This document shows positions 24,895 to 41,020 of a stretch of 64,000 nt of DNA, piece by piece. The stretch comes from a virus, in the IMG/VR virus record IMGVR_UViG_3300010885_011634, positions 27,264 to 91,263 of that record. One strand, written 5' to 3'. Numbering within the stretch: position 1 is the stretch's first letter; each line of letters begins with the position of its first letter. A program made the translations under genes and the position numbers. Under the pieces are notes generated by a model. The model made no database searches and was not told the DNA's origin. It was given only the letters and a program-made list of their open reading frames with translations.

Positions 24895-25470
24895 ATGAAA
24901 ATAGCTACTAATGCTATCCCGTTAAAATATCAAGAATCTATCTTGGCCGCAGTTACAGATAGGAAATTCCCATGGTTTCCGGTACATGAACAATACAGCA
25001 ATAATACACGTATGACTTTTAGTCATTTGATTATTAATGACGGACCTGATCAGGCGCCTGGATCTACTGCATCCGGATACTATAACCTGTTTCTTCCTAT
25101 TGTATATTCAATGGCAGATCTTATAGGAAAGCCTATAAAAAAAGTTCTTAGAATTCGAGTTGGGTTAATTTTACCTACACCGTGGTTGCCTGCAATTAAC
25201 GACACTATTATATACGAACAATCAGGTGATGATGCACATCAGGATTTTTTCTTACCACACCATACAGGATTATATTATATTAATTCAAGCGATGGAGATA
25301 CTGTCATATACAATGAAAAATCTCAAGCAGATACCTATACAGAGTTATCTAAAATTTCACCAGAGCAAGGAAAAATTTGTGTATTTGATGGAGAGCACTT
25401 TCATGCTGCTGGTACTCCTAGCTGTTCTCCTTATCGATTAGTTGCTACTTTTAATTTTACCACATTATGA
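24895..25470 (+). CDS. Fe(II)/2OG oxygenase (HxD type)
   Basis: HQD...LYYINSSDGDTVIY...FDGEHFHA...R.V.TFN. Confidence 0.85.
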   Translation: MKIATNAIPLKYQESILAAVTDRKFPWFPVHEQYSNNTRMTFSHLIINDGPDQAPGSTASGYYNLFLPIVYSMADLIGKPIKKVLRIRVGLILPTPWLPAINDTIIYEQSGDDAHQDFFLPHHTGLYYINSSDGDTVIYNEKSQADTYTELSKISPEQGKICVFDGEHFHAAGTPSCSPYRLVATFNFTTL

Positions 25471-26207
25471 GTATTTTTAATTTTTTCAAAAAACCAAAGC
25501 CCTTAAAGACTGTAGTTTGGTCAGTTGTTCCAGGTCTTGAAGAAATAGTTCCTCCCACTCCAATGAAGGATAACATCCCTAGCTGGTTCAAAAACATGCC
25601 CAAAGATATTGCTCCGCTGGCAATGCTACATCCAGGAACAGCTAAACGTTGCCCTTCGTTTGTAGACTATTTTAGTCAAGGATTTGTTGTTAAAATGTGG
25701 TGCGATCTAGCCGTTACTATTAATGAAGATAGATCGTATAACGTTTATACTCCTGAAGATTGTTTTAGATTTGAAAATCACGGCGACGAACAATTTTTAG
25801 ATTATATTCCTAATCGAAAAGAACTAAACATTAGTATGGTGCTTAAGGCGTTTTGTCCGTGGAGAGTACTTACACCGCCGGGCTATTCATTAATGCAACT
25901 ACCGTTAATTTACAACTTTAATAAAGATTTTACAGTATTTCCAGGATTAATCTGGACTGACGTTCATCATGAAATTAATCAGCAAATTGCATTTCACGGT
26001 TATGGTGATTTTTTTATTCCTAGAGGAACTCCTTTGGCTGCGTACATTCCATTCAAACGAGAAAGACATGATTTAGAAGTATCTAAGAACACTGAAGAAC
26101 TCTCGTATCGTGATAGGATTGCATACTATTGGTGGGCGGGAAAATTTAAGAACGGGTATAGAGAGCATCAAATAGAACTCAAAAAAGGAGAAAGAAATGA
26201 CAGTTGA
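25467..26207 (+). CDS. Hypothetical beta-rich protein (DUF6065-like/dUTPase-like fold suspected)
   Basis: KRCP.F.DY...G, PWR..TPPGYS, PG.I.TD, I.RGTPL..YIPFKR motifs. Confidence 0.45.
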   Translation: MSIFNFFKKPKPLKTVVWSVVPGLEEIVPPTPMKDNIPSWFKNMPKDIAPLAMLHPGTAKRCPSFVDYFSQGFVVKMWCDLAVTINEDRSYNVYTPEDCFRFENHGDEQFLDYIPNRKELNISMVLKAFCPWRVLTPPGYSLMQLPLIYNFNKDFTVFPGLIWTDVHHEINQQIAFHGYGDFFIPRGTPLAAYIPFKRERHDLEVSKNTEELSYRDRIAYYWWAGKFKNGYREHQIELKKGERNDS

Positions 26208-26436
26208 TGAATTAGTAGCAGGCAAGAATTATTTTTGTGATTATTTTGTAAATGTTGATCCAGAACAAGTTCCATCATTAGCAGGACAAAATATTCCTAT
26301 GGCTAGAATGAACGGTAAAGCACAAATAATGCAACGCGATGTGGAGTCAAAACTGTGTATCATTGTCGATTTAATGTCACATCAAGAATATGTTGTGCCG
26401 TTTGAAAACATTTCACAGATTCAAGAAGTAGCATAA
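26197..26436 (+). CDS. Small hypothetical protein
   Basis: AGGAG SD; overlaps the upstream stop. Confidence 0.65.
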   Translation: MTVDELVAGKNYFCDYFVNVDPEQVPSLAGQNIPMARMNGKAQIMQRDVESKLCIIVDLMSHQEYVVPFENISQIQEVA

Positions 26437-26445
26437 TAGTTACAA

Positions 26446-27036
26446 ATGATTAACGATATTATTGTTTTAGATGATGTTATTCCTAAAGCATATCAAGATG
26501 CTATTGAAAAACGTGTAATGACGGAAAATTTCCCTTGGTGGTATCAATCTGATAGTTCATATACGGACAAAATTGATGCTAAAAGATTTCCAAGTTTTAA
26601 TCATTTGTTATCTAAAAATGGTGTTGAATATAATCAATCTACTTCATTCTTTTTACCGATTGCATATCATGCCTGTGAAAAGATCAATTTCAAAATTAAT
26701 GATTTTATCTACATTAAAAGCTGCCTACAAATGCCTATAATTATGGATACCAGCGACCGAAGTAACAATGTACATATCGATAGTCAAATTCCTCATTTAG
26801 TTGTACTTTACTACGTAACCGACAGTGATGGTGATACTATAATATATGATAGGATGTATGATAAATCAACGGAAAACTGGATAGATATTACTCGCTTAGA
26901 ACACAACAAACTACCCGTTAAGCAAACGGTAACACCTAAAAAGGGAAGAGTAGTGCTATTTGACGGGCGATATTTGCATAATAGTTCAACTCCGTTACAC
27001 GGCCCTAGATGTATCCTTAATTTTGATGTTGTATAA
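26446..27036 (+). CDS. Fe(II)/2OG oxygenase (HxD type)
   Basis: HID...LYYVTDSDGDT...PKKGRVVLFDG..LHNSS.P....R.ILNFD. Confidence 0.88.
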   Translation: MINDIIVLDDVIPKAYQDAIEKRVMTENFPWWYQSDSSYTDKIDAKRFPSFNHLLSKNGVEYNQSTSFFLPIAYHACEKINFKINDFIYIKSCLQMPIIMDTSDRSNNVHIDSQIPHLVVLYYVTDSDGDTIIYDRMYDKSTENWIDITRLEHNKLPVKQTVTPKKGRVVLFDGRYLHNSSTPLHGPRCILNFDVV

Positions 27037-27071
27037 ATATAGTATATTATTTGATACAAGGAGTATTAACA

Positions 27072-27242
27072 ATGTGGACTGTAGAAGGTAAAACGTTTGA
27101 TCGCTACTATAAGGCATACGAGTATGCTGCTGGGTTATCAACAGAATTACAAAGAGAAGTAGAGATTATTAAACAAGGCGAATCTAAAGGCGTTAAAATT
27201 TTTGTAGGAAGAATTGTATCAGGCTACGCTGCAGATATTTAG
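27072..27242 (+). CDS. Small hypothetical protein
   Basis: ATG 27072 with an AGGAG SD, preceded by a perfect TATAAATA at 27032-27039. Confidence 0.6.
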   Translation: MWTVEGKTFDRYYKAYEYAAGLSTELQREVEIIKQGESKGVKIFVGRIVSGYAADI

Positions 27243-27883
27243 AGTCTACTAAAATCTAGCTCAGATAAATTAGGGTTAGATCCTACTTTTCCAATTATCA
27301 TAGAGTTAAAAGCTAACGATTTCCTTGGGGTAGAGAACGAATTTTTATCTACCCCATGTTTAAGATAACTAGGAAATAATAATAACGTATTTTTCCTAGG
27401 GTTAACTTTATAAAAATCCCAAGCAAAGTCATTTTCAATAGATGCGTCACGGCAAATCTCAAATTGCGTTATTTTACTTGGTCTTAAAAAAGATAACGGT
27501 TCAAACGGAGGCTCTTGCCAATAGAAGCATCCCGATATCAAACTGTTTGGATGCCGGTGGTATGTGTGTTGCTCGTTAACGTTTTTAATCGATACCCAAC
27601 TTTGTGTCAATTCTATCTTTTCAAATCGGTATGCAAGTACTTCACGAGCATAGATTTCTAAATGTGTTATAATAAAATCTCTTAGTAGCTTACACTTAGG
27701 ATTATCTAAAATATACGTATCTTCACTTACAGATCCATATGTCTGTACATTTTCGTAGGCATTATTTGATCTCAATTTAGCAGTATCTAAAAACTCAACT
27801 GCTTCCGCTACATCTTTTTGACACAATGCAAAATATAACGGTGTTGGAAATATTCCTATAACTTCGGTAAAATCTTCATTCAT
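27239..27883 (-). CDS. Putative 2OG-Fe(II) oxygenase, TIGR02466-like (HxH type)
   Basis: IFPTP, SW, HRHPNSLISG.FY, LLLFPSYLKHGV, RKSLAFN; start moved to 27883 (GGGAG SD). Confidence 0.85.
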   Translation of the reverse strand: MNEDFTEVIGIFPTPLYFALCQKDVAEAVEFLDTAKLRSNNAYENVQTYGSVSEDTYILDNPKCKLLRDFIITHLEIYAREVLAYRFEKIELTQSWVSIKNVNEQHTYHRHPNSLISGCFYWQEPPFEPLSFLRPSKITQFEICRDASIENDFAWDFYKVNPRKNTLLLFPSYLKHGVDKNSFSTPRKSLAFNSMIIGKVGSNPNLSELDFSRL

Positions 27884-27884
27884 C

Positions 27885-28505
27885 TTATTCTCCCAACAGT
27901 ACGTTGCCTGCAATTGAAATACGAATATCATCAGAATTATAAAACGGATATACACAATGTCTTAACATCGCTGGAAATATTAAAAGTTTTCCTTCATAGG
28001 TGTTATCTACTATAAACTCAGTAGGTCGAGTATTCCCTAAAATATCAGAATAGGTAATTTCAAATTTTCCAGCAAATTTATAATTTGATGTATCCTTTGG
28101 TATTTTAACCCACAGGACATAACTTAAAATTCCTTCGTGTTGGTGGTTAGGAAAAAATTCATTGGCTTTTTGTAAATTGACCCAAGGATCTTGAAAGTGT
28201 AACGGTGCTTGAGTTTTTAGGTAATTCAAACTTCGTAGATACAATGACCTATCGTAATATTCTGCAACAGCATCTGCTAAAAAGTTTTTGAATTTTTCAT
28301 TATTTTCTATTAGCTTAAAGTGTGTAGGTACGCCAGTTGACGATAACCCCGTAGTATGCAATGTTGTCCAGTATTTTTCTTTATCTCGATAATTTTTTTC
28401 TATATCGATTGTTTCTAGTTTGATAGATTCAAACAGTTCAGATGGAATATCCATTAGTAATAAACTAATATTGTTTAATACTAGATCTTCTACATTATTG
28501 ATCAT
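27885..28505 (-). CDS. Putative 2OG-Fe(II) oxygenase (HxH type)
   Basis: WVN.Q...EF.PNHQHEGILSYV.W, LLIFPA.LRHCVYPF, RISIAGN. Confidence 0.82.
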   Translation of the reverse strand: MINNVEDLVLNNISLLLMDIPSELFESIKLETIDIEKNYRDKEKYWTTLHTTGLSSTGVPTHFKLIENNEKFKNFLADAVAEYYDRSLYLRSLNYLKTQAPLHFQDPWVNLQKANEFFPNHQHEGILSYVLWVKIPKDTSNYKFAGKFEITYSDILGNTRPTEFIVDNTYEGKLLIFPAMLRHCVYPFYNSDDIRISIAGNVLLGE

Positions 28506-29064
28506 AGGTATACCACCCTGTAATAATATATTTGTTACCTGAATATGGCGGATTACCTCGATGAGGATGTGTAAAGAAAGCTGGCCATAATACTAAAGTG
28601 CCAGTAGAAGGTTTAACTTTTAATTGCTGATACAGGTATTCTGTTTCTCCACCATCTTCTACATCGTTAAGATATAGGGTATAAGCTAAGACTCTAGACG
28701 AGCTAGGATTGCCTGCTGATTCACAATGCCACGTGTGATATCCCTGAGTTGGGGCGGTTCGCTGTACACACATGCCTTTTGGTGAATGCGGTGCAAGGAG
28801 TTGCAATACTTCATATTTGCTGGCGTATTTTTCATATCCAAGATGTAACGTTTGATAGAATTGTTTAACAATATCATGATGGTAATAATGCATTTGATTA
28901 TGAGGGGACCAATCATACATTACTCGGTCATCTGAATTGCGTTCAAGACCGCGCTGAGGGATTGTTAATTTTTCAGAATGCATCCTTTCAAAAATGTCAA
29001 TAACAGTTTGACAATATTCTGTATCAAATGCATTAGGATATATTTCTATCATATTAGTTGTCAT
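28495..29064 (-). CDS. Prolyl-4-hydroxylase-like 2OG-Fe(II) oxygenase (HxE type)
   Basis: GYHTWHCE, R.L.YTLYLNDVEDGGETE.LYQ, WPA.FTHPHRGNPP, KYIITGW. Confidence 0.9.
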   Translation of the reverse strand: MTTNMIEIYPNAFDTEYCQTVIDIFERMHSEKLTIPQRGLERNSDDRVMYDWSPHNQMHYYHHDIVKQFYQTLHLGYEKYASKYEVLQLLAPHSPKGMCVQRTAPTQGYHTWHCESAGNPSSSRVLAYTLYLNDVEDGGETEYLYQQLKVKPSTGTLVLWPAFFTHPHRGNPPYSGNKYIITGWYTYDQ

Positions 29065-29069
29065 ATACT

Positions 29070-29651
29070 TTAATTAGCTGCTTTATCTGTAGACATAAAA
29101 TTAAATGCAATTGAAATACGTTCATCGTTTGAATCGTTTACCGTTACCGAATGTTTAAGCCAAGGTGAAAATATATACATTCTTCCTGTTTCTGGTTTAA
29201 GAATAAAATCTCCGCTAAATGCATTATCAAAATAATCAGCACCGTCATTTCTATACAATATTAAATTACTATTAGAATTCTCAGGAACCTTAACATAGTA
29301 TACCCCAGTTAAAATATTAGTATTATGACTATGCATCACATTGTAATGAGTTGATCGATTAATATTAATCCATGACGAAATTGTTCCGACACGTTTAGTA
29401 ATATTAATTTGTTTACACACTTCGTTGGCAAACTCTATTCCTGTGTTGGCAAGATTTTGCAACGCTGGATATAGCGGATCGTTAAGATTTGATGCTGTAC
29501 TATGGAAGCCGCCTTTATTTGAAGCATATAACCCTGCTTCTATTTTCTCTCTCAATAGACACTCTTGCAATACAGCAGTATTGTCAATATCAAATTCTGA
29601 AGAAAAAATAAAACTTGAAAAAATAGGTTCGCTTACAATATTAGTAAACAT
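29070..29651 (-). CDS. Putative 2OG-Fe(II) oxygenase, TIGR02466-like (HxH type)
   Basis: SNKGGFHS, SWININ...YN.MHSH, GVYYV, WLKHSV, RISIAFN; start moved to 29651. Confidence 0.85.
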   Translation of the reverse strand: MFTNIVSEPIFSSFIFSSEFDIDNTAVLQECLLREKIEAGLYASNKGGFHSTASNLNDPLYPALQNLANTGIEFANEVCKQINITKRVGTISSWININRSTHYNVMHSHNTNILTGVYYVKVPENSNSNLILYRNDGADYFDNAFSGDFILKPETGRMYIFSPWLKHSVTVNDSNDERISIAFNFMSTDKAAN

Positions 29652-29652
29652 A

Positions 29653-30249
29653 CTATGGCACCAACTTAATGTTAAAACTAATTGAAATTCTTTCTTTTTC
29701 TGAAATATTTGGTAACGTTCCATGTTGCAGCCACGATGGAAACAACACCAATCGATTAGTAACAGCTTTATATTTGATGTTTGACGTTAAAAATTTTGAT
29801 CTTAAACATAGCTCTGAATGATTGTATGCACTCGATGGTGCCATAAATTGAATGTCTCCACTGTTTTCGTGCGTCTGTACATAGTAGGCGCCGGAAATAT
29901 CACTATACGGGTGACAGTGATATTCTTGATACATTCCTTTTTCTGAATAGTTAATCCATGAATCATACATATTAAGATATGAATATTTAGGATTTACTTC
30001 TAATTGATTTAAGAATGTATTTACAGATGCTAATATATGATTTTTTAATATTGGGCAATGATTTTGAATTATATGATTCGATTGATTGTACTTAAATGTA
30101 GTCAGTATGTTTCCACCCCAAGGATTATTTAAGGTAGATTTTTTATATTCATCACATACTGTTTGTGTTTCGGCATCTAACGATGTCTTAAGGTCAGCAT
30201 CGTTGCAATCAACTACAAACACAGGTACTCCAAAGCACATTTCTATCAT
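29653..30249 (-). CDS. Putative 2OG-Fe(II) oxygenase, TIGR02466-like (HxH type)
   Basis: SWIN..KG.YQEYHCHP.S.ISGAYY, LFPSWLQHG, RISISFN. Confidence 0.87.
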   Translation of the reverse strand: MIEMCFGVPVFVVDCNDADLKTSLDAETQTVCDEYKKSTLNNPWGGNILTTFKYNQSNHIIQNHCPILKNHILASVNTFLNQLEVNPKYSYLNMYDSWINYSEKGMYQEYHCHPYSDISGAYYVQTHENSGDIQFMAPSSAYNHSELCLRSKFLTSNIKYKAVTNRLVLFPSWLQHGTLPNISEKERISISFNIKLVP

Positions 30250-30833
30250 ATTAGGTCAAAATTTATTATGCAGCGTTTATCAGTGACCGGAGACGAACTA
30301 GAATGATAGTGTGCGCCGCTAAAGAATACACATCTTCCTTTTACAGGGTCTACAGTTTTTATAGCAGTAAAATTAGTAATGCCTGCTTGTTCTACAGGAA
30401 CATTCTGCAACGTTTGTTGATATATTGTTGTTGGTCCTTGACTATCGTTTACATAGTATAGACATACCAGATGCTCCATAGGCATGTCAATATGTGGGTT
30501 ATTTGATATAGATGGCAAATACGTAGGCAGTTGAAGGAACGATCGAACCCTAAAAACGTGTTGTATATTAAAATTAATTTTATCACAGGCTGAATACACT
30601 AACGGTAATAAAAAATCTAATTTTTGAGTTATAAGCCCGTCTTCATTCTTGAACACATGAGCAAATGCAGGATACTTGCGTGTAATCCCAACCTTTTCAC
30701 CGTTGTTATCAGCATAGGTAATATCATTCTGCAGATACCACGGAATGCTTCCATCACTGAGCATGAACTGTTCAATTGCATCTTGATACTGCAATGGAAT
30801 TACATTGTCTAAAACAATTATATCGTTAACCAT
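30246..30833 (-). CDS. Fe(II)/2OG oxygenase (HxD type), close paralogue of 26446..27036
   Basis: PHID..HLVCLYYVNDS.G.T, KGRCVFFSG.HYHSSS.P, RCIINFD. Confidence 0.88.
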   Translation of the reverse strand: MVNDIIVLDNVIPLQYQDAIEQFMLSDGSIPWYLQNDITYADNNGEKVGITRKYPAFAHVFKNEDGLITQKLDFLLPLVYSACDKINFNIQHVFRVRSFLQLPTYLPSISNNPHIDMPMEHLVCLYYVNDSQGPTTIYQQTLQNVPVEQAGITNFTAIKTVDPVKGRCVFFSGAHYHSSSSPVTDKRCIINFDLI

Positions 30834-32010
30834 TAAAAATTTCCAGGTGTCTCATTTTCTCGTCTAATAAATTCCAAAGAAAAATACTAACTGGCCCCAT
30901 TATAATTGCTTCATCATTTTGATTAAGATAATTTAATAGTTTACAAGCACTAATGTGTTCTTTCCATAAAGGGCTGTTGTCTAAATGATTTTGAGTTTTT
31001 TCTTTTGTAATTTTCCAAAATGGCGTGTCAAATACCGAACCTTTGTTATAAACAAAATGAATAAAGTTTTCATATTTTTGTGCTTCTTCTACTAATCTAT
31101 GATTTAACTCATCTAATGTGTGTCCCTCTACAGTAAAGAAATTTACTATTTTAACACATACAGAATCATAATAGTATCCCGACAATGCTTCAAGCGGTTC
31201 AAAAAATAATGCGCGGTTTCCGTTCTTAAAAATTCTTCCATCTAATGGTTTTTTAGAATAGTAATTTTTGAAAGAAAACTCTCTTAAGTTTAATCCGTCA
31301 ACAGTTGTGTTAAAGATTTCTGCCATTTCTTCCATAGCTTCTTCTTTAGTTGTAATAGTATCATTAAACAAATACCCCCATCCTTGCCTAGTCTGTAAAG
31401 GAATACCAAACATCCAACCATTTTTATGTGCTTGGTGATAGGTATAATTCCAATCACCGGGTTTTTCTATAGTATGTATTAGTGCATGATTAACTGGGAG
31501 ATCCTTACAAATTTCATAATCAGTATAGTCGTCTGGATACCCACGACAGTCTACAATATAATCAAAGGTGTGTGGAACGCCGTTGATTAGCATTTCAACT
31601 TTATCGGCATCTTGCTTTAGGTCTTCAATTTTTCCTTCAAGTGCCGTGAATCGTTTGCCCCATTTAGATTTTAATTTTTTAATGACCACTTCACCTAACT
31701 TAAAATTATTAAAATGCATGGCAAAAAAGGGCGGAAGTATGTGAGTATTGAACGGCTCTGGAGTCCAGTTGATATATTTTACACCGTGCTTAGTTGTGGC
31801 ATCAAGATCATCGGCATTGTCCAACATTGTAAATCCGGCACCTTTCCATAGTGCTTGTGGCAACGCAGTTGTAGTACTTTCGCCAATACCTAAAATTTTA
31901 ATATCAGGATCGTGAATAGAATATATTTCAAAGTCGTTAGGCAGATGTGCTGACAAATAACACAGAGTATGTACTCCTGCGGTTCCAACACCTATAATTG
32001 CTATTTTCAT
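30826..32010 (-). CDS. Flavin-dependent halogenase, tryptophan-halogenase family (short, divergent)
   Basis: GVGTAG, IGESTT, ATTKHG (catalytic Lys position), DCRG, GWMFGIP, FFEPLEA. Confidence 0.8.
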   Translation of the reverse strand: MKIAIIGVGTAGVHTLCYLSAHLPNDFEIYSIHDPDIKILGIGESTTTALPQALWKGAGFTMLDNADDLDATTKHGVKYINWTPEPFNTHILPPFFAMHFNNFKLGEVVIKKLKSKWGKRFTALEGKIEDLKQDADKVEMLINGVPHTFDYIVDCRGYPDDYTDYEICKDLPVNHALIHTIEKPGDWNYTYHQAHKNGWMFGIPLQTRQGWGYLFNDTITTKEEAMEEMAEIFNTTVDGLNLREFSFKNYYSKKPLDGRIFKNGNRALFFEPLEALSGYYYDSVCVKIVNFFTVEGHTLDELNHRLVEEAQKYENFIHFVYNKGSVFDTPFWKITKEKTQNHLDNSPLWKEHISACKLLNYLNQNDEAIIMGPVSIFLWNLLDEKMRHLEIFNG

Positions 32011-32027
32011 ATAATCCTTAAGTTATC

Positions 32028-32597: not shown

Positions 32598-34051
32598 TCT
32601 TCAATTCCTATATAGTCTTTGCATATTTTCATATTGCGCTCTTTTTGTCTAGCATAGTATCTTAATATATATTCGTTAGATTCGTGCTTTGCTACTAGAG
32701 CTGGCGAGATTAATCCCAATGCATCAACTACTGTTATCCAGCTTTCTAATGAATATTGTCTAGAGTAGTTGTTTAAGTTAATTTTTCCTGTGAGGTAAAA
32801 TTGTTTTATTTCTTCTAATCTCGCAGTCAATGACTCTGGTATTCTGCTAGGATTGGTTTGATGTTCTTTCCAAAATTTAGTTTCTAATCCTTTTCCTCTA
32901 TAATGCAATGATAAAAAATTCTTTATTGCTTCATAACTTTCTGCTACTGATTGATTAAATTCTTTAGGAAACTCGCTAGCGTCTACCCATGGATTCCACA
33001 CCCTTCTAAGGATCTCTAAAGAGTCAGTAATAATTCCAACTCCGTTAGCTTCTAATGGTTCTAAAAAGCCAGTGCTCAACCCAAGTCCTATTACATTATT
33101 CTTCTGGACTTGATCTAATACACATGGACTAAACTTTATAGATGCAACTGGTTCTGCATGTTCACCAAATTTAGATCTAATTTCGTCTAGAGCCTGCTCA
33201 GGAGTTAAAATGTCTGGATCATACAGATATCCTTGTCCGGTCCTTTGCTTAATACCAATTTGCCAACTCCATCCGGCATCCATTGCTGTTGCTATTGTAG
33301 CTGAATTAAATTTTGGCTTATCCCACCAAGCTATCACTGCTCTTGCTGGAAAGATGTCAGCGTATTCTGTTTTTCCTACATTCATTACTTTTTCTAATAG
33401 CAGTCTTGCAAATCCTGAGCAATCTATTGCCCAGTCAAGTGGAACTATTCGATCGTTATCTAGCACTAACGATTCAATATTTCCTTGGTGGTCAAGATTT
33501 GACTTCTGATATTCACCTTCTATAAGTGATATGTTTCTAGATAGCCCAATCTTTTTTAAGTATGCAGCATTAGCTCGTGAATCAAAATGCCACATAGACG
33601 GACCTATTTGATTTGTATTGGTATCAAATGGAACTAAATTTTCTTTAACACACTGTCCGCTATGAGGAATGTCGCAGGGAGTTATACCCGAGCCTATTAG
33701 TTCTCTAAAATAAAAATATCTTTCTTTTTTACTTGGGAATGTTTTTGCCCATTCAGTGTAATATTCGGAAAACAGTGAGTGATAAAATTTATGACCTTTA
33801 CCGTTCCAGTTATAAAACTCCCCGCCTTGTTTTGGGGTAGCTCCTGTTTCTTTGACCCAATCAATGATGTCGATGCCTAGGTTATTATATATTCCGTTGA
33901 TTGGAAGATTTCCGCTTTCTCCTGCAATAATTGGAGGGCGTTTAGGATCCTCAATTACCGTCACTGTTAAATCAGGCCAGTAGTTTTTTATAAAGATAGC
34001 CGATAGCCATCCTGCTGTGCCTCCACCTAAAATAACTACAGACTTAGTCAT
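32579..34051 (-). CDS. Flavin-dependent halogenase, tryptophan-halogenase family
   Basis: GGGTAGW, AGES, ATPKQG, HFD, DCSGF, GWSWQIG, GFLEPLEANG. Confidence 0.88.
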   Translation of the reverse strand: MTKSVVILGGGTAGWLSAIFIKNYWPDLTVTVIEDPKRPPIIAGESGNLPINGIYNNLGIDIIDWVKETGATPKQGGEFYNWNGKGHKFYHSLFSEYYTEWAKTFPSKKERYFYFRELIGSGITPCDIPHSGQCVKENLVPFDTNTNQIGPSMWHFDSRANAAYLKKIGLSRNISLIEGEYQKSNLDHQGNIESLVLDNDRIVPLDWAIDCSGFARLLLEKVMNVGKTEYADIFPARAVIAWWDKPKFNSATIATAMDAGWSWQIGIKQRTGQGYLYDPDILTPEQALDEIRSKFGEHAEPVASIKFSPCVLDQVQKNNVIGLGLSTGFLEPLEANGVGIITDSLEILRRVWNPWVDASEFPKEFNQSVAESYEAIKNFLSLHYRGKGLETKFWKEHQTNPSRIPESLTARLEEIKQFYLTGKINLNNYSRQYSLESWITVVDALGLISPALVAKHESNEYILRYYARQKERNMKICKDYIGIEEWAQKF

Positions 34052-35633
34052 GATAAATGTTATCTTTTAGGAACTGATAATGAGTTGGCAAAGTATCAAT
34101 ATATTCTAGTACCTGTGATTTTCGAAGCTCGTAGTTTGCTCGAACTTCGTTCCAAATTTTTTCAGCATTCGGTGATCTAAACTCTACTAAATTCGCATAC
34201 GATTCAGAGATGGGATTTAGCCCCATTCCAGCCATAATAAATGTTTCTCCCACGGGCGTATCCCATCTTAAAGATTTTTCTGAATTTATTCTAAACATAG
34301 TTTCTTGAGCATTTCTTCTAAAGTTTACTTTAAGATCAAACGCTTCTGGAACATATCTAATTTTATTTGTTGCGTGGCGCCAATACTCAGTATCTGATCG
34401 TTGACTCATAGCATAGTGTAAGGATACAAATTGTTTGAATCCTTCAAGTTCTTCTCTTGCAGCAAAATTCCACCCGTCGATGTCAAATTGATTTACATAC
34501 CCGTCTCTACGTGATAGAGTATCACTTAGCCTCATGATATTTTCGTGTGTTGTTAATAGTCCAGTAGATTCTAACGGCTCAATAAATCCTAATGCTAGGC
34601 CCATTGCGCAGACGTTTTTAACCCAAGGTTCGTCTTGGACACCGTGGCGTATCTCGATATAATTAAATTCTGTTTCCTCGGCAGTTTTTTCGCCTAGCCT
34701 AATCGCTAAATGTTTTCTAAAATCCTTTTCTGCTTGTTCTCTATCTGCAAATTTACTCGAATGTACATAACCTGTACCTCGTCGGGTATATAACGGAATG
34801 TCCCACACCCATCCATTTTCGATAGCGGTACAATTAGTTACAGAGTGCATTTCATTTTCTCGATCAACATATTGCACTCTAGCAGCCAATGCTCGATCGT
34901 TTAGTAATACATCATCAAAACTTAAAAATTTTGTTTTCATTACCTTTTCAATTAATATTTTTCTGAAGCCCGATGCATCAATGTATAAATCGGCTGTTAA
35001 GTGTCGACCATCTTCGGTAATGATTTCAGAAACTTCTCCTAGCTCATTTTGTTTTACATCAACAATCGTGTCTTGTATGTGAGTCACTCCATTCGGAATG
35101 GCTATTTTTTCTTTTAGGTAAACTCCGAATCGTTCGGCATCCATGTGATATGCAGTGTTAAGATGGAAATCAAACCCTCTAATTTTACCTTCTTCATTTT
35201 TAGTTAATTTGTTTCTGTCAGTCATTAATACTTGATTAACAAACATCTCTGCAAAATCGCTAGGTGGTAATTTTTTTCCCGAATATGCTTGATAGTGGAA
35301 CCAATCCATAATTCCATTATAACAATCAGCAGTATCAAAATTTCCAAACGGATAATGAAAAGATCCGCTGTCTTTTTCTCTGAAATCTGTAAATTTGATT
35401 GAAGTTTTATAGGTAGCGTTACAAAAACTCATCCAATCTTCGTCTTTTAATCCCAATGAATCTAAAAATACATTTATGTGCCCAAGCGTAGATTCTCCTA
35501 CTCCGATGGTTCCTATTTTTTTAGATTCGATCAATGTTATATCTAAAAATTTTAATTTTTTAGATAGATATGCAGCCGTCATCCAGCCGGTTGATCCGCC
35601 GCCTACTATTAAAACTTTTTTGATTGTTGGCAT
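34044..35633 (-). CDS. Flavin-dependent halogenase, tryptophan-halogenase family (most PrnA-like copy)
   Basis: GGGSTGWMTA, IGVGEST, CNATYK..IKF, AYH.DA, DASGF, GWVWDIPL..R.G.GYV, GFIEPLESTGL, LHY....RSDT.YW. Confidence 0.93.
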   Translation of the reverse strand: MPTIKKVLIVGGGSTGWMTAAYLSKKLKFLDITLIESKKIGTIGVGESTLGHINVFLDSLGLKDEDWMSFCNATYKTSIKFTDFREKDSGSFHYPFGNFDTADCYNGIMDWFHYQAYSGKKLPPSDFAEMFVNQVLMTDRNKLTKNEEGKIRGFDFHLNTAYHMDAERFGVYLKEKIAIPNGVTHIQDTIVDVKQNELGEVSEIITEDGRHLTADLYIDASGFRKILIEKVMKTKFLSFDDVLLNDRALAARVQYVDRENEMHSVTNCTAIENGWVWDIPLYTRRGTGYVHSSKFADREQAEKDFRKHLAIRLGEKTAEETEFNYIEIRHGVQDEPWVKNVCAMGLALGFIEPLESTGLLTTHENIMRLSDTLSRRDGYVNQFDIDGWNFAAREELEGFKQFVSLHYAMSQRSDTEYWRHATNKIRYVPEAFDLKVNFRRNAQETMFRINSEKSLRWDTPVGETFIMAGMGLNPISESYANLVEFRSPNAEKIWNEVRANYELRKSQVLEYIDTLPTHYQFLKDNIYHD

Positions 35634-37102
35634 TACGTTATTTTCCTTTTCATGATCATTTCAAGTGCATCTCTATGTTTAAGCGGCTGTTCTGAATCGT
35701 CTTTTGCTTTAATTACAAATAGTTTTATTGCAGCCTCGTGCTGTAAGTCAGCTGGCATGTTATGCCACTTTGCTATTAATTTTTCTCTATCAAAATGTCC
35801 TAGTCCATTAAGAACTAAAAACCAATTATGATTTCTAAATAATATATATGGTTTTGCGAACGTTGTTGATAACGGCATATTTTCTTTATACATTGACAAT
35901 GTTTTTGCATTAAACTCAGTTAACTTGAGTGTTTTACAATACTTCCAAAAATCTGAATCTTCTCGTTTTGTTAGATAATGCAATTGCACAAAATCTATAG
36001 TATTTTGAAATACATCAACGAATTGTGCATTATAAATTTCTGATATAGTAGTATTGGTTAATCCCCATGCAGGTAAGCAAGTACTTAATGAAAATGCTTG
36101 TTGTATTGCAGTTCCTATGTTTGTGGCCTCTAGTGGTTCAATAAAACTAGCAGACAAACCGATAGCACATACATTTTTTATCCACGGAGTCTTTGCATAA
36201 CCTGCAGAAAACTTAAATCTTTTTACAATATTAAGTTTTTGTCCATATAGTTCTTCGACTTCTTTAATAGCAGTTTCTTCGTCGATAAATTTATCACAGT
36301 ATACATATCCGTTACCAAATCTATGTTGCGTAGGAATTTGCCATACCCATCCAGCACTAAGGGCAGTGGCTTTAGTATAAGAAGGAATTTCTTGGTCGTC
36401 TGTAAATTCTGTTGGGAATGTTATTGCAGAATTTACTGGTAGAAATTCTGCACAGTCTACCCATTCTGCATTTAATTTTTTAGTTAATACCTTATGAAAT
36501 CCCGAACAATCGATATAAAACTCTGATGTGTAAGAATTTGATTCTCCAAATATTTTACTAATGCCGTTGTCATCTGTTTCAACAGAAGTAATAGTATCTT
36601 CTACAATGCTTACACCTGCCTCTAAACATTTTTTTTGTAAAAATTCGTTGAGCTTAAAGGTATCAAAGTGAAATTGGTTCGCTGAAAATTCGAAAGGATA
36701 ATAATGCTCGCTGTTTGCAATATAGTCGCCAACACATTTCAACGGTTCAACGTTGTCAACTAATAATTTATGATATAGATACGGATACCCCAATGTTGTT
36801 TGTTGTGTGAATTCTGTAATCACCCCATGAATATATTCTTTCTTATCACCATTCCAATTGTCAAATTTAATACCGTACTTAAATGTTGCGTCTGTTTCTT
36901 TAATTAGCTCAACAACATCGATACCAACGTATCGCATAAACTCAGCCCAATGTTCGGTGCTGCCTTCACCTACTCCAACTATGTCGACAATAGAAGATTT
37001 TATAATAGTAATGTCAAGTTCTGGGTACGATTTTTTTAAGATTAGTGCAGATATTAGTCCACTAGTTCCTGCTCCTAAAATACAAATATTATTAATAAGC
37101 AT
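35633..37102 (-). CDS. Flavin-dependent halogenase, tryptophan-halogenase family
   Basis: GAGTSG, VGVGEGS, ATFKYGIKF..W, FHFD, DCSGF, GWVWQIP...R.GNGYVY, SFIEPLEAT, LHY...R.DS.FW. Confidence 0.92.
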   Translation of the reverse strand: MLINNICILGAGTSGLISALILKKSYPELDITIIKSSIVDIVGVGEGSTEHWAEFMRYVGIDVVELIKETDATFKYGIKFDNWNGDKKEYIHGVITEFTQQTTLGYPYLYHKLLVDNVEPLKCVGDYIANSEHYYPFEFSANQFHFDTFKLNEFLQKKCLEAGVSIVEDTITSVETDDNGISKIFGESNSYTSEFYIDCSGFHKVLTKKLNAEWVDCAEFLPVNSAITFPTEFTDDQEIPSYTKATALSAGWVWQIPTQHRFGNGYVYCDKFIDEETAIKEVEELYGQKLNIVKRFKFSAGYAKTPWIKNVCAIGLSASFIEPLEATNIGTAIQQAFSLSTCLPAWGLTNTTISEIYNAQFVDVFQNTIDFVQLHYLTKREDSDFWKYCKTLKLTEFNAKTLSMYKENMPLSTTFAKPYILFRNHNWFLVLNGLGHFDREKLIAKWHNMPADLQHEAAIKLFVIKAKDDSEQPLKHRDALEMIMKRKIT

Positions 37103-37110
37103 ATGATACC

Positions 37111-37725
37111 TTAAAATGTATATTCCACTGGAGGAATAGCTTGAAAATCTATATTAAAATTTATTGAAATTCTAGAAATAGTTGTATTGTTTGTATTAGT
37201 TCTATGTTTTAAGAATCCTGGAAATAATACAAGATCGTGTTGTCTAATTCCTGCAGGATATTCCATACATAGGTCTTTACCTTCCTCAGAAAACGGAAAT
37301 GAATGGTAATGATACTCTAAGGGATTTAAGAAAATTAAATCACCGCTGTTTTCTGTATAATCTAAATAATAACAGCCAACTAACGTGTGCCCTAGATGGG
37401 AATGCACGTCAGTCCAGGAGCCGTTGGTATGTAAATTTGCCCACATACTTACTATTTTAGGTTCTAAAAAATATGATAGCCCTAATTCATTCCAATAGTT
37501 TGATGCGTGATTGAAAATTAAATTGCATAACGGTTGAAATATTTCATTGTTATGTAACTCTCGAGCTAGTTGATGTGTACTTTTTCCACCATCTTTTTCT
37601 AAACAATGAGATGTTGATATTTTGTCAAATACATTTAAGAGGTATTCTCTCATAGCAGATTGAATTGAATCATCTAATGCTAGAGATTCTTTATAAATTT
37701 TGATGGCAAAAAGAGGTGATAGCAT
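37111..37725 (-). CDS. Putative 2OG-Fe(II) oxygenase, TIGR02466-like (HxH type); first gene of the enzyme operon
   Basis: MWAN, HSH, GCYY, SGDL.F.NP, LFPGFLKH, RISINFN; start moved to ATG 37725, 5 nt after TAAGTA. Confidence 0.85.
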   Translation of the reverse strand: MLSPLFAIKIYKESLALDDSIQSAMREYLLNVFDKISTSHCLEKDGGKSTHQLARELHNNEIFQPLCNLIFNHASNYWNELGLSYFLEPKIVSMWANLHTNGSWTDVHSHLGHTLVGCYYLDYTENSGDLIFLNPLEYHYHSFPFSEEGKDLCMEYPAGIRQHDLVLFPGFLKHRTNTNNTTISRISINFNIDFQAIPPVEYTF

Positions 37726-37748
37726 ACATCTACTTATCACCTCTTTTT
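37708..37748 (-). promoter_or_regulatory. 14-bp perfect inverted repeat (terminator or translation-occluding hairpin) with a nested TAAGTA late promoter
   Basis: AAAAAGAGGTGATA (37708-37721) / TATCACCTCTTTTT (37735-37748); TAAGTA at 37736-37731 and the ATG at 37725 lie within it. Confidence 0.7.
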
Positions 37749-37761
37749 TATATGACTACAA

Positions 37762-38238
37762 TTATTGGTTGCTTGGCAGTTCTACTGTTTCTTTAAGACC
37801 AACTACATATAACAATCCTGGAACTTCTGCGTTGTTAACATCAGTCCATGCTGGCGACTCCAATGAACACCATTTAATTGGTGGTCTAGCGGCGTACATT
37901 TCTCTTGCTTCGTCGCTATTTGGTCCAGGAACTGTGGCTTTAACGGTAGTAATATGATCAACCCAATTTGAAGTGTTGTTTATCATATCTTTATACAACA
38001 TATCCAATTGATCGTTAATTTCTCCGTACGCTTGTTTTCTTAACATTCCATATGATGGAGGTGCAGCAACATCTTGCAACCAATTACCGTCTACCAAAAT
38101 CCATGACGGGTTTACGTTGTCACTATCGCAATTTACCCATCTAATTGCAGCGCCAGGGCCTTCATAAATTTCATGTTCTTCCCCAGGATTTGCAATAGCT
38201 TGTACACTGCCCTTAAAATCTACTAATACTCTTTTCAT
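37762..38238 (-). CDS. Probable tail-fibre assembly/chaperone-like protein
   Basis: True start MKRVLVDF (38238); LRKQAYGEINDQLDMLYKD...W.DHI..VK motif typical of small genes that follow fibre genes. Confidence 0.55.
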   Translation of the reverse strand: MKRVLVDFKGSVQAIANPGEEHEIYEGPGAAIRWVNCDSDNVNPSWILVDGNWLQDVAAPPSYGMLRKQAYGEINDQLDMLYKDMINNTSNWVDHITTVKATVPGPNSDEAREMYAARPPIKWCSLESPAWTDVNNAEVPGLLYVVGLKETVELPSNQ

Positions 38239-38239
38239 T

Positions 38240-39160
38240 TTATTTGTACTCCCATACAATAACCATACCGTTTCTTCCGTTTGCGCCGCGACCGTGATCT
38301 CGTGCGCCACCTGTGCCTCCTGATCCTGGTGCTGCTTGTGTTTCTTGATCGTAGGTGTGCGGGGAGTTGTTGTGAACTCCAATAGCACTACCACCAAAAT
38401 AGCTTGAGCCACCTTCACCACCACCGTGGTTAATATGTCCTGACCCACCACCACCATATAAATTCATTGTGCCGCCACTACCAACACCCGGACGACCACC
38501 AGAGTGTCCGGCAATTGCACGGGCGCCTTCGCCTGCGCTTGCTGATAGGTATGGTCCAAAACTTGTAGCACCGCTGCCAGTGCCGGCAACGTTGTGATAG
38601 TTAACACCACCACCACCTGTTCCTACAGTAACTGATACTGAAGAAATGCTTGTAACGTCTAACATGCGTTCTGAAAATCCGCCCCCACCACCGGCTTCAC
38701 CGTGTCCTGATCCCCCGCCACCGGGTCCTACTAATTGAATTCTAATTCTTGTAATGCCAGTAGGTCTAGACCAAGTAGTACTTGAATTAAAAATTTGTAT
38801 AGAAACTAAATCTGAAAATGCATATTCGTATGCATCAGCAGCATTAGTTACTCTAAGAGTTCTGTTAGCAGCGCCTACCGTTGTTAATGCTGTACCACCT
38901 TTACTAATTGGCAATGTACCTGTTACTGTGGTTGTACTTAAATCTACAGCGTTTGCTGCTAATTTTGCTGCGGTTACTGATGTATTTGCAAGTTTTGCAC
39001 CGGTAACATTGGCGTCAGCGATTTTAATTGTTGCAATTTGCCCATCTTGTATTTTAGATGTAATAACAGAATCTGTTGCAAATTTAGCAGATGTAATTGT
39101 AGCATCAACAATACCTGCTGCTGTAATCTTTTTTAGTGAGTTATAATTAAAGGTAGCCAT
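38240..39160 (-). CDS. Gly/His-rich fibre-like protein, paralogue 3
   Basis: MATFNYNSLKKIT; 10-aa (A)DxxVTxAKL repeats; TGTLP..KGGT; Gly-rich domain from F....TW.RP.G...I.V..VG.GGGG to G..G.V.VWEY. Confidence 0.75.
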   Translation of the reverse strand: MATFNYNSLKKITAAGIVDATITSAKFATDSVITSKIQDGQIATIKIADANVTGAKLANTSVTAAKLAANAVDLSTTTVTGTLPISKGGTALTTVGAANRTLRVTNAADAYEYAFSDLVSIQIFNSSTTWSRPTGITRIRIQLVGPGGGGSGHGEAGGGGGFSERMLDVTSISSVSVTVGTGGGGVNYHNVAGTGSGATSFGPYLSASAGEGARAIAGHSGGRPGVGSGGTMNLYGGGGSGHINHGGGEGGSSYFGGSAIGVHNNSPHTYDQETQAAPGSGGTGGARDHGRGANGRNGMVIVWEYK

Positions 39161-39173
39161 TTATTTTGTAATC

Positions 39174-40097
39174 CTATCGATATTCATATACAACTACCAT
39201 GCCAGTTGAACCACTTGCACCTCTATGGCGACCTTGTGATCCGCCTGTGCCACCTGCTCCCGGAGATGCCCACCCTTCGTAACCTCCAGGTCCACCGAAT
39301 TCTTCTGCGTGTGCGCCAACGCCCGAACCACCAAAATATGAAAATCCGCCAAGGCCTCCACCGTGTAAGCAATGTCCTGCTCCGCCGCCACCATATAAAT
39401 TAACATCACCACCTGACCCAATGCCTGGACGCCCACCTGTATGTCCACCAACGTTGCGAGCTCCTTCACCGCCACTTGCTGATAGGTATGGGCCAAAACT
39501 ACATGCTGATCCACCACCGGCAACATTATGGTAGTTAACTCCGCCACCATTACCGCCAATAGTTACTGAAACTGATGCAATACTTGTAACATCAAGATAT
39601 CTTTCCGCAAATCCACCGCTGCCGCCAGCTTCGCCGTGACCTGTGCCGCCGGCACCGCTACCTACTACTTGTACTCGAACTCTAGTAATTCCTGCTGGGC
39701 GTGTCCAAGTACCACCTGATGTAAACACCTGCATTGACACTAGCCCTGCATCTTGAAATACTGTAGCATTTCCTGAAGTATTTGCCATTACTGATCGATT
39801 AGCATTACCTGATACCGCAGTTTGTCCTAGACCACCACGTGTATATGGCAGTGTTCCTGTAGCTACTGTAGTTGAGATGTCTACAGATCCTGTCCCCATC
39901 TTTGCAGCAGTTACAGCAGTGTCGGCAATGTTACTTGTTGCAATAGTGGTAGCAGCAAGTTTGGCTGTAGTTACTGAGTTTGAGGCAAAGTCAGCTGTTA
40001 CTAAACTATTATCAGCAATATCTGCGGCCACAATAGTGGCGTCAAGTAATCCCTCACCTGTAATCTTTTTTAGCGAATTGTAATTAAATGTTGCCAT
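39174..40097 (-). CDS. Gly/His-rich fibre-like protein, paralogue 2
   Basis: Same architecture and near-identical length (307 aa). Confidence 0.75.
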   Translation of the reverse strand: MATFNYNSLKKITGEGLLDATIVAADIADNSLVTADFASNSVTTAKLAATTIATSNIADTAVTAAKMGTGSVDISTTVATGTLPYTRGGLGQTAVSGNANRSVMANTSGNATVFQDAGLVSMQVFTSGGTWTRPAGITRVRVQVVGSGAGGTGHGEAGGSGGFAERYLDVTSIASVSVTIGGNGGGVNYHNVAGGGSACSFGPYLSASGGEGARNVGGHTGGRPGIGSGGDVNLYGGGGAGHCLHGGGLGGFSYFGGSGVGAHAEEFGGPGGYEGWASPGAGGTGGSQGRHRGASGSTGMVVVYEYR

Positions 40098-40430
40098 GTA
40101 TTATCCTATCTAAAGTTCCAAACAATTACGATTCCAGTCTTTCCGTTTGCACCAGTGTGTCTAGCTTGAGCACCGCCCGTGCCGCCAGCGCCAGGGGCAG
40201 CCCAATCTTGATATGTTGCTGTATTTGGTGATTCATGATGTACTCCAATTGACGGTCCACCAAAGAAACTACGACCACCCTGACCGCCGCCATAGTGAGT
40301 ATGTCCACTACCGCCCGATCCGTATAAATTTATTTCGCCGCCTGACCCAATGCCTGGACGCCCACCTGTATGTCCACCTACATTTCGTGCGCCTTCACCA
40401 CCACTTGCTGATAGGTATGGGCCAAAACTA
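39412..40430. repeat. Identical DNA patches shared by Gly-rich paralogues 1 and 2
   Basis: 38-nt identity 39412-39449 = 40341-40378; 30-nt identity 39472-39501 = 40401-40430. Confidence 0.9.
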
Positions 40431-41020
40431 ACAGCAGCACCAGCTCCACCTACATTATGATAGTTAACTCCCCCACCTGCGCCACCAATAGTTACTGAAA
40501 CTGATGAAATACCTGTTACATCAAGATATCTTTCTGCATACCCGCCACTTCCGCCAGCTTCGCCGTGACCTGTGCCACCGCCGCCACTTCCGACTAATTG
40601 AATTTTAACACGAGTACAGTTTGCTGGACGTGTCCAGGTACCGCCTGATGTGAATACACTACACGATATTAATCCGCTGCCACCATATTCAAGAGCAGTA
40701 CCAGCATTATTAACCATAATAGCGCCGTTAGCTGACATAGTGCTAAGATTGGTTCCGCCACGTGCAACTGGAAGGGTACCTGTGGCCTTTGCCCCAGATA
40801 TATCTACTGCACTTGCAGCCATCGCTGCTGATGTTACTGTTGTTGCTGCTATTTTTGTATCAGTAACTTGTAAAGCACCAATTTTAGCTCCAGTTATATT
40901 TAGAGCTAGAATTTTTGTATCTGTAATAGCACCTGCTGCAATATCAGCATCAGCAATAGTTCCGTCAACAAGGCCTGCGCCGGATATTTTCTTAAAGCTA
41001 TTATAATTAAATGTTGCCAT
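40106..41020 (-). CDS. Gly/His-rich fibre-like protein, paralogue 1
   Basis: Same architecture (304 aa). Confidence 0.75.
   Translation of the reverse strand: MATFNYNSFKKISGAGLVDGTIADADIAAGAITDTKILALNITGAKIGALQVTDTKIAATTVTSAAMAASAVDISGAKATGTLPVARGGTNLSTMSANGAIMVNNAGTALEYGGSGLISCSVFTSGGTWTRPANCTRVKIQLVGSGGGGTGHGEAGGSGGYAERYLDVTGISSVSVTIGGAGGGVNYHNVGGAGAAVSFGPYLSASGGEGARNVGGHTGGRPGIGSGGEINLYGSGGSGHTHYGGGQGGRSFFGGPSIGVHHESPNTATYQDWAAPGAGGTGGAQARHTGANGKTGIVIVWNFR

Follow-up and report, generated by a model that had tools for sequence, protein, structure and literature searches.

In cyanophage Syn9, an array of ten dioxygenases, two halogenases and a protein of the dUTPase fold was described by Iyer, Abhiman, de Souza and Aravind in 2010. 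That paper assigns the fold, with a conserved Cys, to the gp43-like protein, proposes organohalogen secondary metabolites as products of the array, and proposes bacterial collagen-like and tail-collar proteins as substrates of co-encoded dioxygenases (PMC2938197). Other published proposals include 2-oxoglutarate (2OG)/NtcA signalling and DNA repair (PMC3037559), and a halogenated metabolite or capsule decoration (PMC7824862). VirX1 of cyanophage Syn10 (PDB 6qgm) is a trimer with a large open active site that halogenates many free aromatic compounds in vitro; in the accessible part of its description the natural substrate is not established and no relevant biosynthetic gene cluster is listed (PMC8407142). 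The role of the marine-phage oxygenase and halogenase arrays, noted in 2007-2010, and the natural substrate of VirX1 (2019) are long-standing questions. Here, a 64,000-nt stretch of viral DNA (the window; positions 27,264-91,263 of IMGVR_UViG_3300010885_011634, all coordinates below being window-based) was analysed, in which an island of halogenase and oxygenase genes follows three putative fibre-tip genes. The island is a new lineage's version of the enzyme neighbourhood known since 2010, and its linkage to tip genes is the new evidence. In the literature searched, no paper connects such enzymes with fibre proteins, and no account of a halogenated virion was found. The linkage names a specific, gene-encoded candidate substrate.

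Like the Syn9/Syn10-type neighbourhood, the window holds a tandem array of several 2OG-oxygenase families, halogenases and a gp43-like protein, and its proteins match Syn9 gp40 (a small protein), gp41 and gp42 (halogenases), gp43 and the oxygenases in the same order. It differs from Syn9 in having four halogenase paralogues rather than two, in placing the gp43-like gene and two oxygenases on a converging strand, and in lacking, in family scans of the island, a JmjC member such as the MINA/NO66-type Syn9 gp49. The 2010 paper proposes secondary metabolites and, in its available portion, does not tie the cyanophage array to fibre-tip genes (PMC2938197). The window phage also belongs to another lineage. 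The T4-like cyanophage setting suggested by the first-pass annotation, which was made from the sequence alone, therefore fails for this phage itself: its TerL (terminase at 8300-9886) is nearest to those of PA5oct-type Pseudomonas jumbo phages (53% identical to PA5oct), followed by Phosso, Atu_ph07 and Rak2-like phages, and cyanomyoviruses are not the nearest. The source contig is 91 kb long with a completeness rating of 26%, from which a genome of about 350 kb is estimated for this uncultured marine jumbo phage. Relatives with TerL 61-80% identical to that of the window are represented by fragments of 130-266 kb, rated 36-72% complete; psbA was not found in five of these large fragments, so that the host of the jumbo lineage could not be identified as cyanobacterial. 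A near-identity DNA search of the phage collection gave no match to the window.

The closest described counterpart of the tip genes is found in cyanophage Pam3, in which gp24 and gp25 (PDB 7ypx) form a 3:3 fibre-chaperone complex; gp25, encoded after gp24, is a chaperone that forms trimers, its N-domain being beta and its C-domain helical (PMC9608196). Three Gly/His-rich paralogues of about 305 amino acids (aa) sharing the N-terminus MATFNYNS(L/F)KKI had been noted in the window, and alignment bore this out at 58-59% identity. An AlphaFold2 (AF2) model of the third paralogue, G3, built with 67 sequences, had a mean predicted local distance difference test score (pLDDT) of 83.6, exceeding 90 over residues 120-306. 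Foldseek aligned this model with the Pam3 fibre protein gp24 (7ypx_A, E 1.9e-8, template modelling scores 0.48/0.58), and also with mycobacteriophage Bxb1 tail-tip chains and the glycine-rich domain of ALK/LTK. A profile of the family gave a chance-level match only against PDB sequences. The prediction that the three paralogues are Pam3-gp24-type fibre-tip proteins, with an N-terminal attachment part, a tumour necrosis factor (TNF)-like domain and a glycine-rich domain, is well supported.

A chaperone-like gene had been placed between the paralogues and the enzyme block. The gene is present, and its coordinates were amended to 37762-38238 (small protein S, 158 aa); a 231-aa open reading frame (ORF) considered for it was rejected, as it overlaps the last paralogue, and the start was set at 38238 rather than at the overlapping upstream ATG. 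In the AF2 model of protein S (pLDDT 85), a beta N-domain precedes a helical C-domain. Pam3 gp25 (7ypx_a) was the sole VIA-align row covering both domains, and the match is weak (Z 4.1, root-mean-square deviation 5.2, 102 residues); Foldseek returned nothing significant, and Pfam returned nothing for any of 43 family members, on which ground an earlier guess of an XkdW-like protein was dropped. Protein S is moderately supported, from its model, as a gp25-like fibre-tip chaperone candidate. The window resembles Pam3 in the modelled tip fold and in having, at the gp25 position after the tip genes, a small gene whose product is modelled with two such domains, and differs from it in that sequence similarity is not detectable by profile, the chaperone match is weak, there are three paralogues behind a 2559-aa fibre, and Pam3 is not among the listed halogenase matches.

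Conservation of this arrangement was determined in a phage collection of 50,697 records, in IMG/VR contigs and in contigs of GTDB genome assemblies. Anchoring on the halogenase, tip genes and the small gene stood directly upstream in 19 of 24 loci, 8 of the 24 being from phage records and 16 from IMG/VR contigs. A search anchored on the tip gene is unbiased towards halogenases, since it begins from the tip gene. This search yielded 80 IMG/VR loci, of which the 64 with at least 2.6 kb of downstream sequence were counted; a halogenase followed within 0.03-2.1 kb in 64/64, with the small gene between in 63/64. In GTDB assemblies, 4/4 contigs (phage contigs in metagenome-assembled genomes, a Prochlorococcus single-cell genome and a Nonlabens assembly) had the order tip gene, small gene, halogenase. 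Among the 50,697 phage records, the full-length small protein and a Syn9 tip paralogue matched an identical set of 20, with a VirX1-clade halogenase directly downstream in 20/20; phages in this set are Syn9, Syn10, S-CREM1, S-SZBM1, S-WAM1, P-TIM40, P-RSM6, Sf-FP1, Sf-CH3, Sf-FR1 and S-RIM44, with Syn9, Syn10, S-RIM44, P-TIM40, S-WAM1 and S-CREM1 being cultured carriers. In annotated records the cassette opens with the fibre gene, followed in order by 2-4 tip genes, the small gene, 1-4 halogenases, the gp43-like gene, and oxygenases of the same subfamilies. Synteny between enzyme islands and fibre genes in relatives, on which the first-pass annotation had staked its reading, was therefore near-universal (64/64, 4/4 and 20/20), and the tip family was never found without a halogenase (88/88 adjacent cases, plus phage S-B64, which has both parts in non-adjacent positions). 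Of the GTDB contigs, the one of 188 kb in the assembly of the isolate Nonlabens xiamenensis and the one of 189 kb in the Prochlorococcus single-cell genome AG-418-C09 (L123/L124) both carry the cassette and look like whole cyanomyovirus genomes lodged in cellular assemblies.

Among the carriers are jumbo phages, with TerL 61-80% identical to that of the window, as well as phages of Kyanoviridae type and other T4-like phages, whose TerL is 34% identical. Clustering the halogenases of the 86 loci in which a full-length halogenase comes after a tip gene gave 54 clusters at 90% identity, 27 at 70% and 11 at 55%. Distribution within the Kyanoviridae is patchy: S-CAM1 and S-CAM3 (TerL 89-91% identical to S-RIM44) are absent from the tip and small-gene match lists, and Syn10 (68%) has the cassette. 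Between the window and relative L033, TerL is 80% identical, against 49% for the halogenase, 46% for the tip protein and 39% for the small protein, and the window halogenase is 50% identical to that of cyanophage S-CREM1, as near as that of L033. From these identities the halogenase appears to share the fast, mosaic history of the receptor-binding module. Lineage breadth, patchiness, fast divergence and exceptions that take another form together argue that the linkage is more than shared ancestry.

Four loci that might have served as counter-examples (L010, L016, L018 and Sf-CH11) were dropped as such, since in each of them the halogenase has small tip genes of another TNF-like or Gly-rich type for neighbours. 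In L016 and L018, three small C1q/TNF-like paralogues and a 91-aa gene precede the halogenase; in L010, a 339-aa Gly-rich gene converges on the enzyme block; and in Sf-CH11 (L120; TerL 91% identical to S-RIM44), a 352-aa Gly-rich protein of another subfamily is followed by oxygenases and a halogenase. In this last phage the 352-aa gene replaces the three tip genes and the small gene, a LamG-like gene stands after the enzymes, and the enzymes stay. L017 was left out of this comparison owing to too little upstream sequence. In S-B64 (NC_055744; L005, L119), tip gene gp150 and small gene gp151 lie behind the fibre, about 85 kb from a VirX1-clade halogenase located after a gp46-like gene, a case of co-occurrence without adjacency. 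In three IMG/VR loci (L127, L129 and L130), two Gly-rich genes of another subfamily (315-321 aa) flank three oxygenases and a gp43-like gene that share a strand, with no halogenase in reach; these loci represent oxygenase-tip linkage without a halogenase. Fibre linkage is absent for more distant phage halogenases (27-32% identical), whose genomes lack the tip family.

The gene content of the island was established from the ORF listing and from family scans (Pfam and PHROG), which confirmed the four flavin-dependent halogenase genes and ten Fe/2OG-oxygenase-type genes noted previously. The tightly packed minus-strand block at 27239-37725, with eight oxygenases and four halogenases, was likewise borne out, its genes overlapping or lying 5-17 nt apart. 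On this strand the order from 41020 to 27239 is three paralogues, the small gene, a PF13759 oxygenase, three full-length halogenases, a PF13640 oxygenase, a 394-aa halogenase and six oxygenase-type genes; on the plus strand (24895-27036), two more oxygenase-type genes, an ORF of 79 aa and the gene for a 246-aa phrog_7084 protein converge on it. The features are as follows.

41722..49401, minus strand: giant fibre protein, 2559 aa, upstream of the cassette; Pfam CBM_5_12 on 6 stretches, E 8e-34.
41380..41700, minus strand: small fibre-like protein, 106 aa; phrog_11338 tail fibre, 1e-8; homologue upstream of tip genes in relatives.
41020..41367, minus strand: small fibre-like protein, 115 aa; phrog_31104 and tail-protein PHROGs; kept upstream of tip genes in relatives.
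40106..41020, minus strand: predicted fibre-tip paralogue G1, 304 aa, combining a TNF-like domain with a Gly-rich one; PF21722, 26.8 bits.
39174..40097, minus strand: predicted fibre-tip paralogue G2, 307 aa; PF21722, 17.8 bits (below cut-off); 58% identical to G3.
38240..39160, minus strand: predicted fibre-tip paralogue G3, 306 aa; PF21722, 31.4 bits; phrog_863; AF2 and Foldseek.
37762..38238, minus strand: small chaperone-like protein S, 158 aa; start read from sequence; phrog_1787.
37708..37748, minus strand: hairpin with a 14-bp stem, enclosing ATAAGTA and the ATG of the first oxygenase; free energy (dG) -20.8 kcal/mol, z -5.15.
37111..37725, minus strand: oxygenase, PF13759 type, 204 aa from ATG 37725; PF13759, 1.5e-13; HSH...H motif.
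35633..37102, minus strand: putative halogenase HalA, 489 aa; PF04820, 2e-95; GxGxxG, Lys, WVWQIP and EPLE.
34044..35633, minus strand: putative halogenase HalB, 529 aa, VirX1 orthologue; PF04820, 7.5e-113; 6qgm, E 2.2e-142, full length; motifs all intact.
32579..34051, minus strand: putative halogenase HalC, 490 aa; PF04820, 6.6e-81; WSWQIG in place of WxWxIP; Lys and Glu kept.
32028..32597, minus strand: oxygenase, PF13640 (prolyl-4-hydroxylase (P4H)-like) type, 189 aa; PF13640, 4.4e-9; H-x-D and distal H.
30826..32010, minus strand: short putative halogenase HalD, 394 aa; PF04820, 4.7e-33; N-terminal GVGTAG; WMFGIP in place of WxWxIP; internal and C-terminal parts shorter.
30246..30833, minus strand: oxygenase-like protein, 195 aa, phrog_274 type; phrog_274, 7e-35; PF13640 weak (below cut-off); HID...H.
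29653..30249, minus strand: oxygenase, PF13759, 198 aa; PF13759, 1.1e-23; nearest PDB entries 2rg4 and 3bvc.
29070..29723, minus strand: oxygenase, PF13759, 217 aa (true start perhaps later); PF13759, 3.3e-19.
28495..29064, minus strand: oxygenase, PF13640, 189 aa; PF13640, 8.4e-13; HCE...H.
27885..28505, minus strand: oxygenase, PF13759, 206 aa; PF13759, 3.7e-12.
27239..27955, minus strand: oxygenase, PF13759, 238 aa from GTG (true start perhaps later); PF13759, 2.7e-17.
26446..27036, plus strand: oxygenase-like protein, 196 aa, phrog_274 type; phrog_274, 1.9e-33; phrog_61; 42% identical to the 30246 protein.
26197..26436, plus strand: 79-aa protein with no Pfam match; homologues at the same place in relatives L012-L014.
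25467..26207, plus strand: protein U, 246 aa, DUF6065-like, homologue of Syn9 gp43; phrog_7084, 3e-47.
24895..25470, plus strand: oxygenase-like protein, 191 aa; PF13640, 23.5 bits (below cut-off); HQD...H; paralogue of the 26446 and 30246 proteins.

The four halogenases score 115, 273, 378 and 321 bits against PF04820 (cut-off 21), and a search of the entire 91-kb contig with this family returned the same four genes. All four have a GxGxxG dinucleotide-binding motif at residues 7-16 (GVGTAG, GGGTAG, GGGSTG and GAGTSG), an aligned Lys (TYKTSIKF, TFKYGIKF, TPKQGGEF and TTKHGVKY) and the (F/L)xEPLE motif with its conserved Glu. Through the alignment with VirX1, we take the aligned Lys and the EPLE Glu to be equivalent to the residues of PrnA (the Lys at the K79 position). 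The WxWxIP motif is intact in the genes at 34044 (WVWDIP) and 35633 (WVWQIP) and altered in those at 32579 (WSWQIG) and 30826 (WMFGIP). Pairwise identity among the four is only 22-29%, which indicates old paralogues and not recent copies; a counterpart of HalD is kept in relatives L012-L014 and L031. The 529-aa HalB is, by sequence, the VirX1 orthologue and a putative halogenase: it aligns with VirX1 over its full length (E 2.2e-142) with the GxGxxG, catalytic Lys, WxWxIP and Glu all kept. Activity on free aromatic compounds has been demonstrated for VirX1 in the accessible part of its description (PMC8407142), whereas HalB is known here from sequence.

The ten oxygenase-type genes fall into at least three subfamilies and share 13 kb with the four halogenases. 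Seven exceed the Pfam cut-off, five with PF13759 and two with PF13640 (27239, 27885, 28495, 29070, 29653, 32028 and 37111). The proteins at 24895 and 30246 score below the Pfam cut-off, and the one at 26446 matches PHROG families only (phrog_274 and phrog_61), which are matched likewise by the 30246 protein; these three are mutual paralogues. Inspection of motifs identified the HxD/E...H form in the proteins at 24895, 26446, 30246, 28495 and 32028. The pattern in the five PF13759 members is HxH...H and not the canonical HxD/E...H, as also in their nearest PDB relatives, 2rg4 and 3bvc, which are solved and uncharacterised; the metal site and co-substrate of these members may be unlike those of a classical 2OG oxygenase. 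PF13640 is commonly equated with P4H-type enzymes. Families of the JmjC, cupin, TET/JBP and AlkB types were not found among the island ORFs in the family scans.

Protein U matches Syn9 gp43 (L003:15571-16359, 1e-17) and counterparts in other cassettes, and a U-like gene follows the halogenase in Kyanoviridae cassettes and in most jumbo-lineage cassettes; PF19541 (DUF6065) is present in 12-21% of members of its Atlas clusters. Non-ribosomal peptide synthetase or polyketide synthase, transporter and flavin reductase genes had been reported as missing from the window, and this held: family scans of the island revealed no backbone-forming enzyme, carrier protein, ligase, exporter or other transporter, and the 91-kb contig, which covers about 26% of the genome, yielded neither a condensation domain (PF00668) nor a flavin reductase (PF01613). 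PF01613 was also not found in five cassette-bearing genomes, from which it follows that the island enzymes would depend on a host flavin reductase.

The start of the enzyme block had been assigned to the TAA(A/G)TA promoter class of the terminase, sheath and neck genes. The hexamer TAAATA is rare in the contig (56 copies, versus 108-223 for its permutations), and 12 of the 56 copies are followed after 4-7 nt, mostly 4-5 nt, by an ORF's ATG, with terminase, tail tube and neck genes among these ORFs (ATGs so preceded include 9886, 14049, 6228, 8288, 20121, 20155, 24812, 2646, 11649 and 18373), often just after a GC-rich, terminator-like hairpin with a T run. TAAGTA occupies the equivalent position before three genes, and stands 5 nt before ATG 37725, the most likely start of the first oxygenase. 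This enrichment marks TAAATA or TAAGTA, placed 4-5 nt ahead of an ATG, as a real start-site motif; if TAAATA is a promoter, the spacing would imply almost leaderless late mRNAs. The assignment therefore stood as to a motif common to terminase, tail tube and neck genes, and late timing was drawn from that motif: what it shows is a signal shared with the structural genes, and not a time of expression. The hairpin at 37708-37748 is conserved between the fibre genes and the enzyme block. In relatives L012, L013, L015, L019 and L031, ATAAGTA...ATG is invariant and the stem is kept with differing arm sequences, 5 pairs showing double changes, so that the junction fits a start site nested in a hairpin, resembling hairpins of T4 in which a start site is kept hidden from read-through transcripts. 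In two published cyanophage transcriptome studies, genes of the island type are not mentioned.

The region may be viewed as the distal end of a tail-fibre module provided with a dedicated set of oxidative enzymes acting on the tips, a reading to which we give slightly less than an even chance. Because the coupling of halogenase to fibre-tip genes is near-obligate and broad, the tip proteins are, with the same reservation, our best current candidate for the substrate of the viral halogenases, ahead of a small-molecule role. Enzymes with gene-encoded substrates are known from the same superfamilies: MibH, SrpI and ChlH halogenate peptides that are made on the ribosome and modified after translation (RiPPs), and the P4H of PBCV-1 and L230 of mimivirus are collagen-type prolyl/lysyl hydroxylases. 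The window is similar to these systems in that a gene-encoded candidate substrate lies beside tailoring enzymes with no backbone-building enzyme, and differs in that the candidate is a folded structural protein of about 300 aa, known here from genes. No leader peptide or recognition element was identified; a domain resembling the RiPP recognition element was absent from the Pfam scans, and no further search for such an element was made.

Under this reading the enzymes would act late in infection on tip proteins held by the chaperone or already assembled into trimers. The halogenases would use host-reduced FADH2, O2 and halide to place Cl, Br or I on exposed Trp, Tyr or His in the His- and aromatic-rich loops between the Gly runs, and the oxygenases would hydroxylate tip side chains, resulting in altered receptor binding or in a hardened or stabilised tip. 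The operon's own late-type start site inside a hairpin would have the enzymes made with the structural proteins and not simply read through from their genes. The wider claim, that the tips of many marine and freshwater phages are halogenated and hydroxylated during assembly by VirX1-type halogenases and 2OG oxygenases, is more tentative, and we regard it as possible and well short of probable. If it is true, these would be the first halogenated virion proteins, and viral flavin-dependent halogenases would have in them their natural substrate; some halogenases in nature would be capable of modifying folded proteins; phages would have a new route to tune or harden receptor-binding proteins; and host recognition by abundant ocean phages would depend on chemistry that cannot be read from the fibre sequence.

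Several points weigh against action on the tips. The case is built on gene neighbourhood, and no modified residue is on record. Neighbouring genes come and go together through physical linkage alone, whatever they do, and accessory genes commonly occupy the slot behind fibre genes. The co-variation between numbers of enzymes and of paralogues that the first-pass annotation had put forward as a check was absent: tip-gene and halogenase copy numbers are uncorrelated (rho 0.12, p 0.5), and rho between tip genes and oxygenases is -0.20. The small gene is set apart from the enzyme operon by a strong hairpin (dG -20.8 kcal/mol, z -5.15), and the hexamer alone is what suggests late expression. Phage halogenases and oxygenase arrays that are more distant stand among photosynthesis genes in S-MbCM6 and between terminase genes in HTVC008M, away from fibres in both. 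The fibres of Pam3 and Bxb1, the fold relatives, work without such enzymes, and neither phage is among the listed halogenase matches. We know of no flavin-dependent halogenase shown to act natively on a folded 300-aa protein. Homologous halogenase/oxygenase pairs in bacteria sit with TonB-type receptors and SapC (PMC2938197), which is suggestive of small ligands. The original proposal of a RiPP-like cluster with the virion as its substrate was accordingly upheld in the fibre identity, the synteny and the shared start motif, and not in copy-number co-variation, with the hairpin between the two modules also counting against it.

In the most serious alternative, the enzymes and the DUF6065-like protein would decorate a metabolite derived from the host (an amino acid, an indole, a phenol or a sugar-linked compound) to give an antibiotic, signal, toxin or surface-polysaccharide decoration, the fibre slot merely tolerating cargo that is inherited or transferred as a whole block. 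This is the published reading for the Syn9 array (PMC2938197) and for S-SSM6a-type clusters (PMC7824862). It agrees with the many free aromatics accepted by VirX1 in vitro (PMC8407142), with the TonB receptors, SapC and NRPS genes beside bacterial homologues (PMC2938197), with the location of more distant phage halogenases in metabolic-gene islands, and with the lack of correlation between enzyme and tip-gene copy numbers. However, neither a backbone-forming enzyme nor a carrier protein, ligase or exporter was found in the island, nor a condensation domain in the contig, and a tailored metabolite leaves unexplained why tip gene and halogenase are adjacent in 88/88 cases, with both also present in S-B64, why other types of tip take the same place, and why the halogenases diverge as fast as the tip proteins. 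We therefore consider it unlikely, though a substantial contender.

Two further explanations take the oxygenases as the active part or turn the enzymes on other macromolecules. Drainage of 2-oxoglutarate by the oxygenases (tuning the NtcA nitrogen signal of the host and giving succinate), or AlkB-like repair of alkylated DNA or RNA, has been proposed for the 2OG oxygenases of cyanomyoviruses, most of which carry such enzymes, some that lack the cassette included (PMC3037559); the halogenases would then be unrelated passengers. Ten divergent paralogues in at least three subfamilies are hard to square with plain drainage, however, no AlkB-type family was matched in the island scans, and a cyanobacterial NtcA context is not established, since psbA was not found in the five lineage fragments; with the halogenases, the DUF6065-like protein and the fibre linkage also left unaccounted for, we hold this explanation to be very unlikely. 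Modification of phage DNA bases, tRNA, or ribosomal or other host proteins, for defence evasion or host takeover, appears more improbable still: 2OG oxygenases do include nucleic-acid modifiers and ribosomal-protein hydroxylases, and the Syn9 array has a MINA/NO66-type JmjC member (PMC2938197), but no JmjC, TET/JBP or AlkB family was matched in the window scans, the operon start motif is common to structural and not to replication genes, and the fibre linkage is unexplained.

Two large structural genes of the window were also recorded. In the 2559-aa fibre upstream of the cassette, a BNR-like repeat accompanies six carbohydrate-binding modules of the CBM_5_12 family, a hint that the receptor could be a glycan or chitin-like. 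The tail sheath protein at 14754-18266 (phrog_10581, full length) is 1170 aa, which is very long for a sheath.

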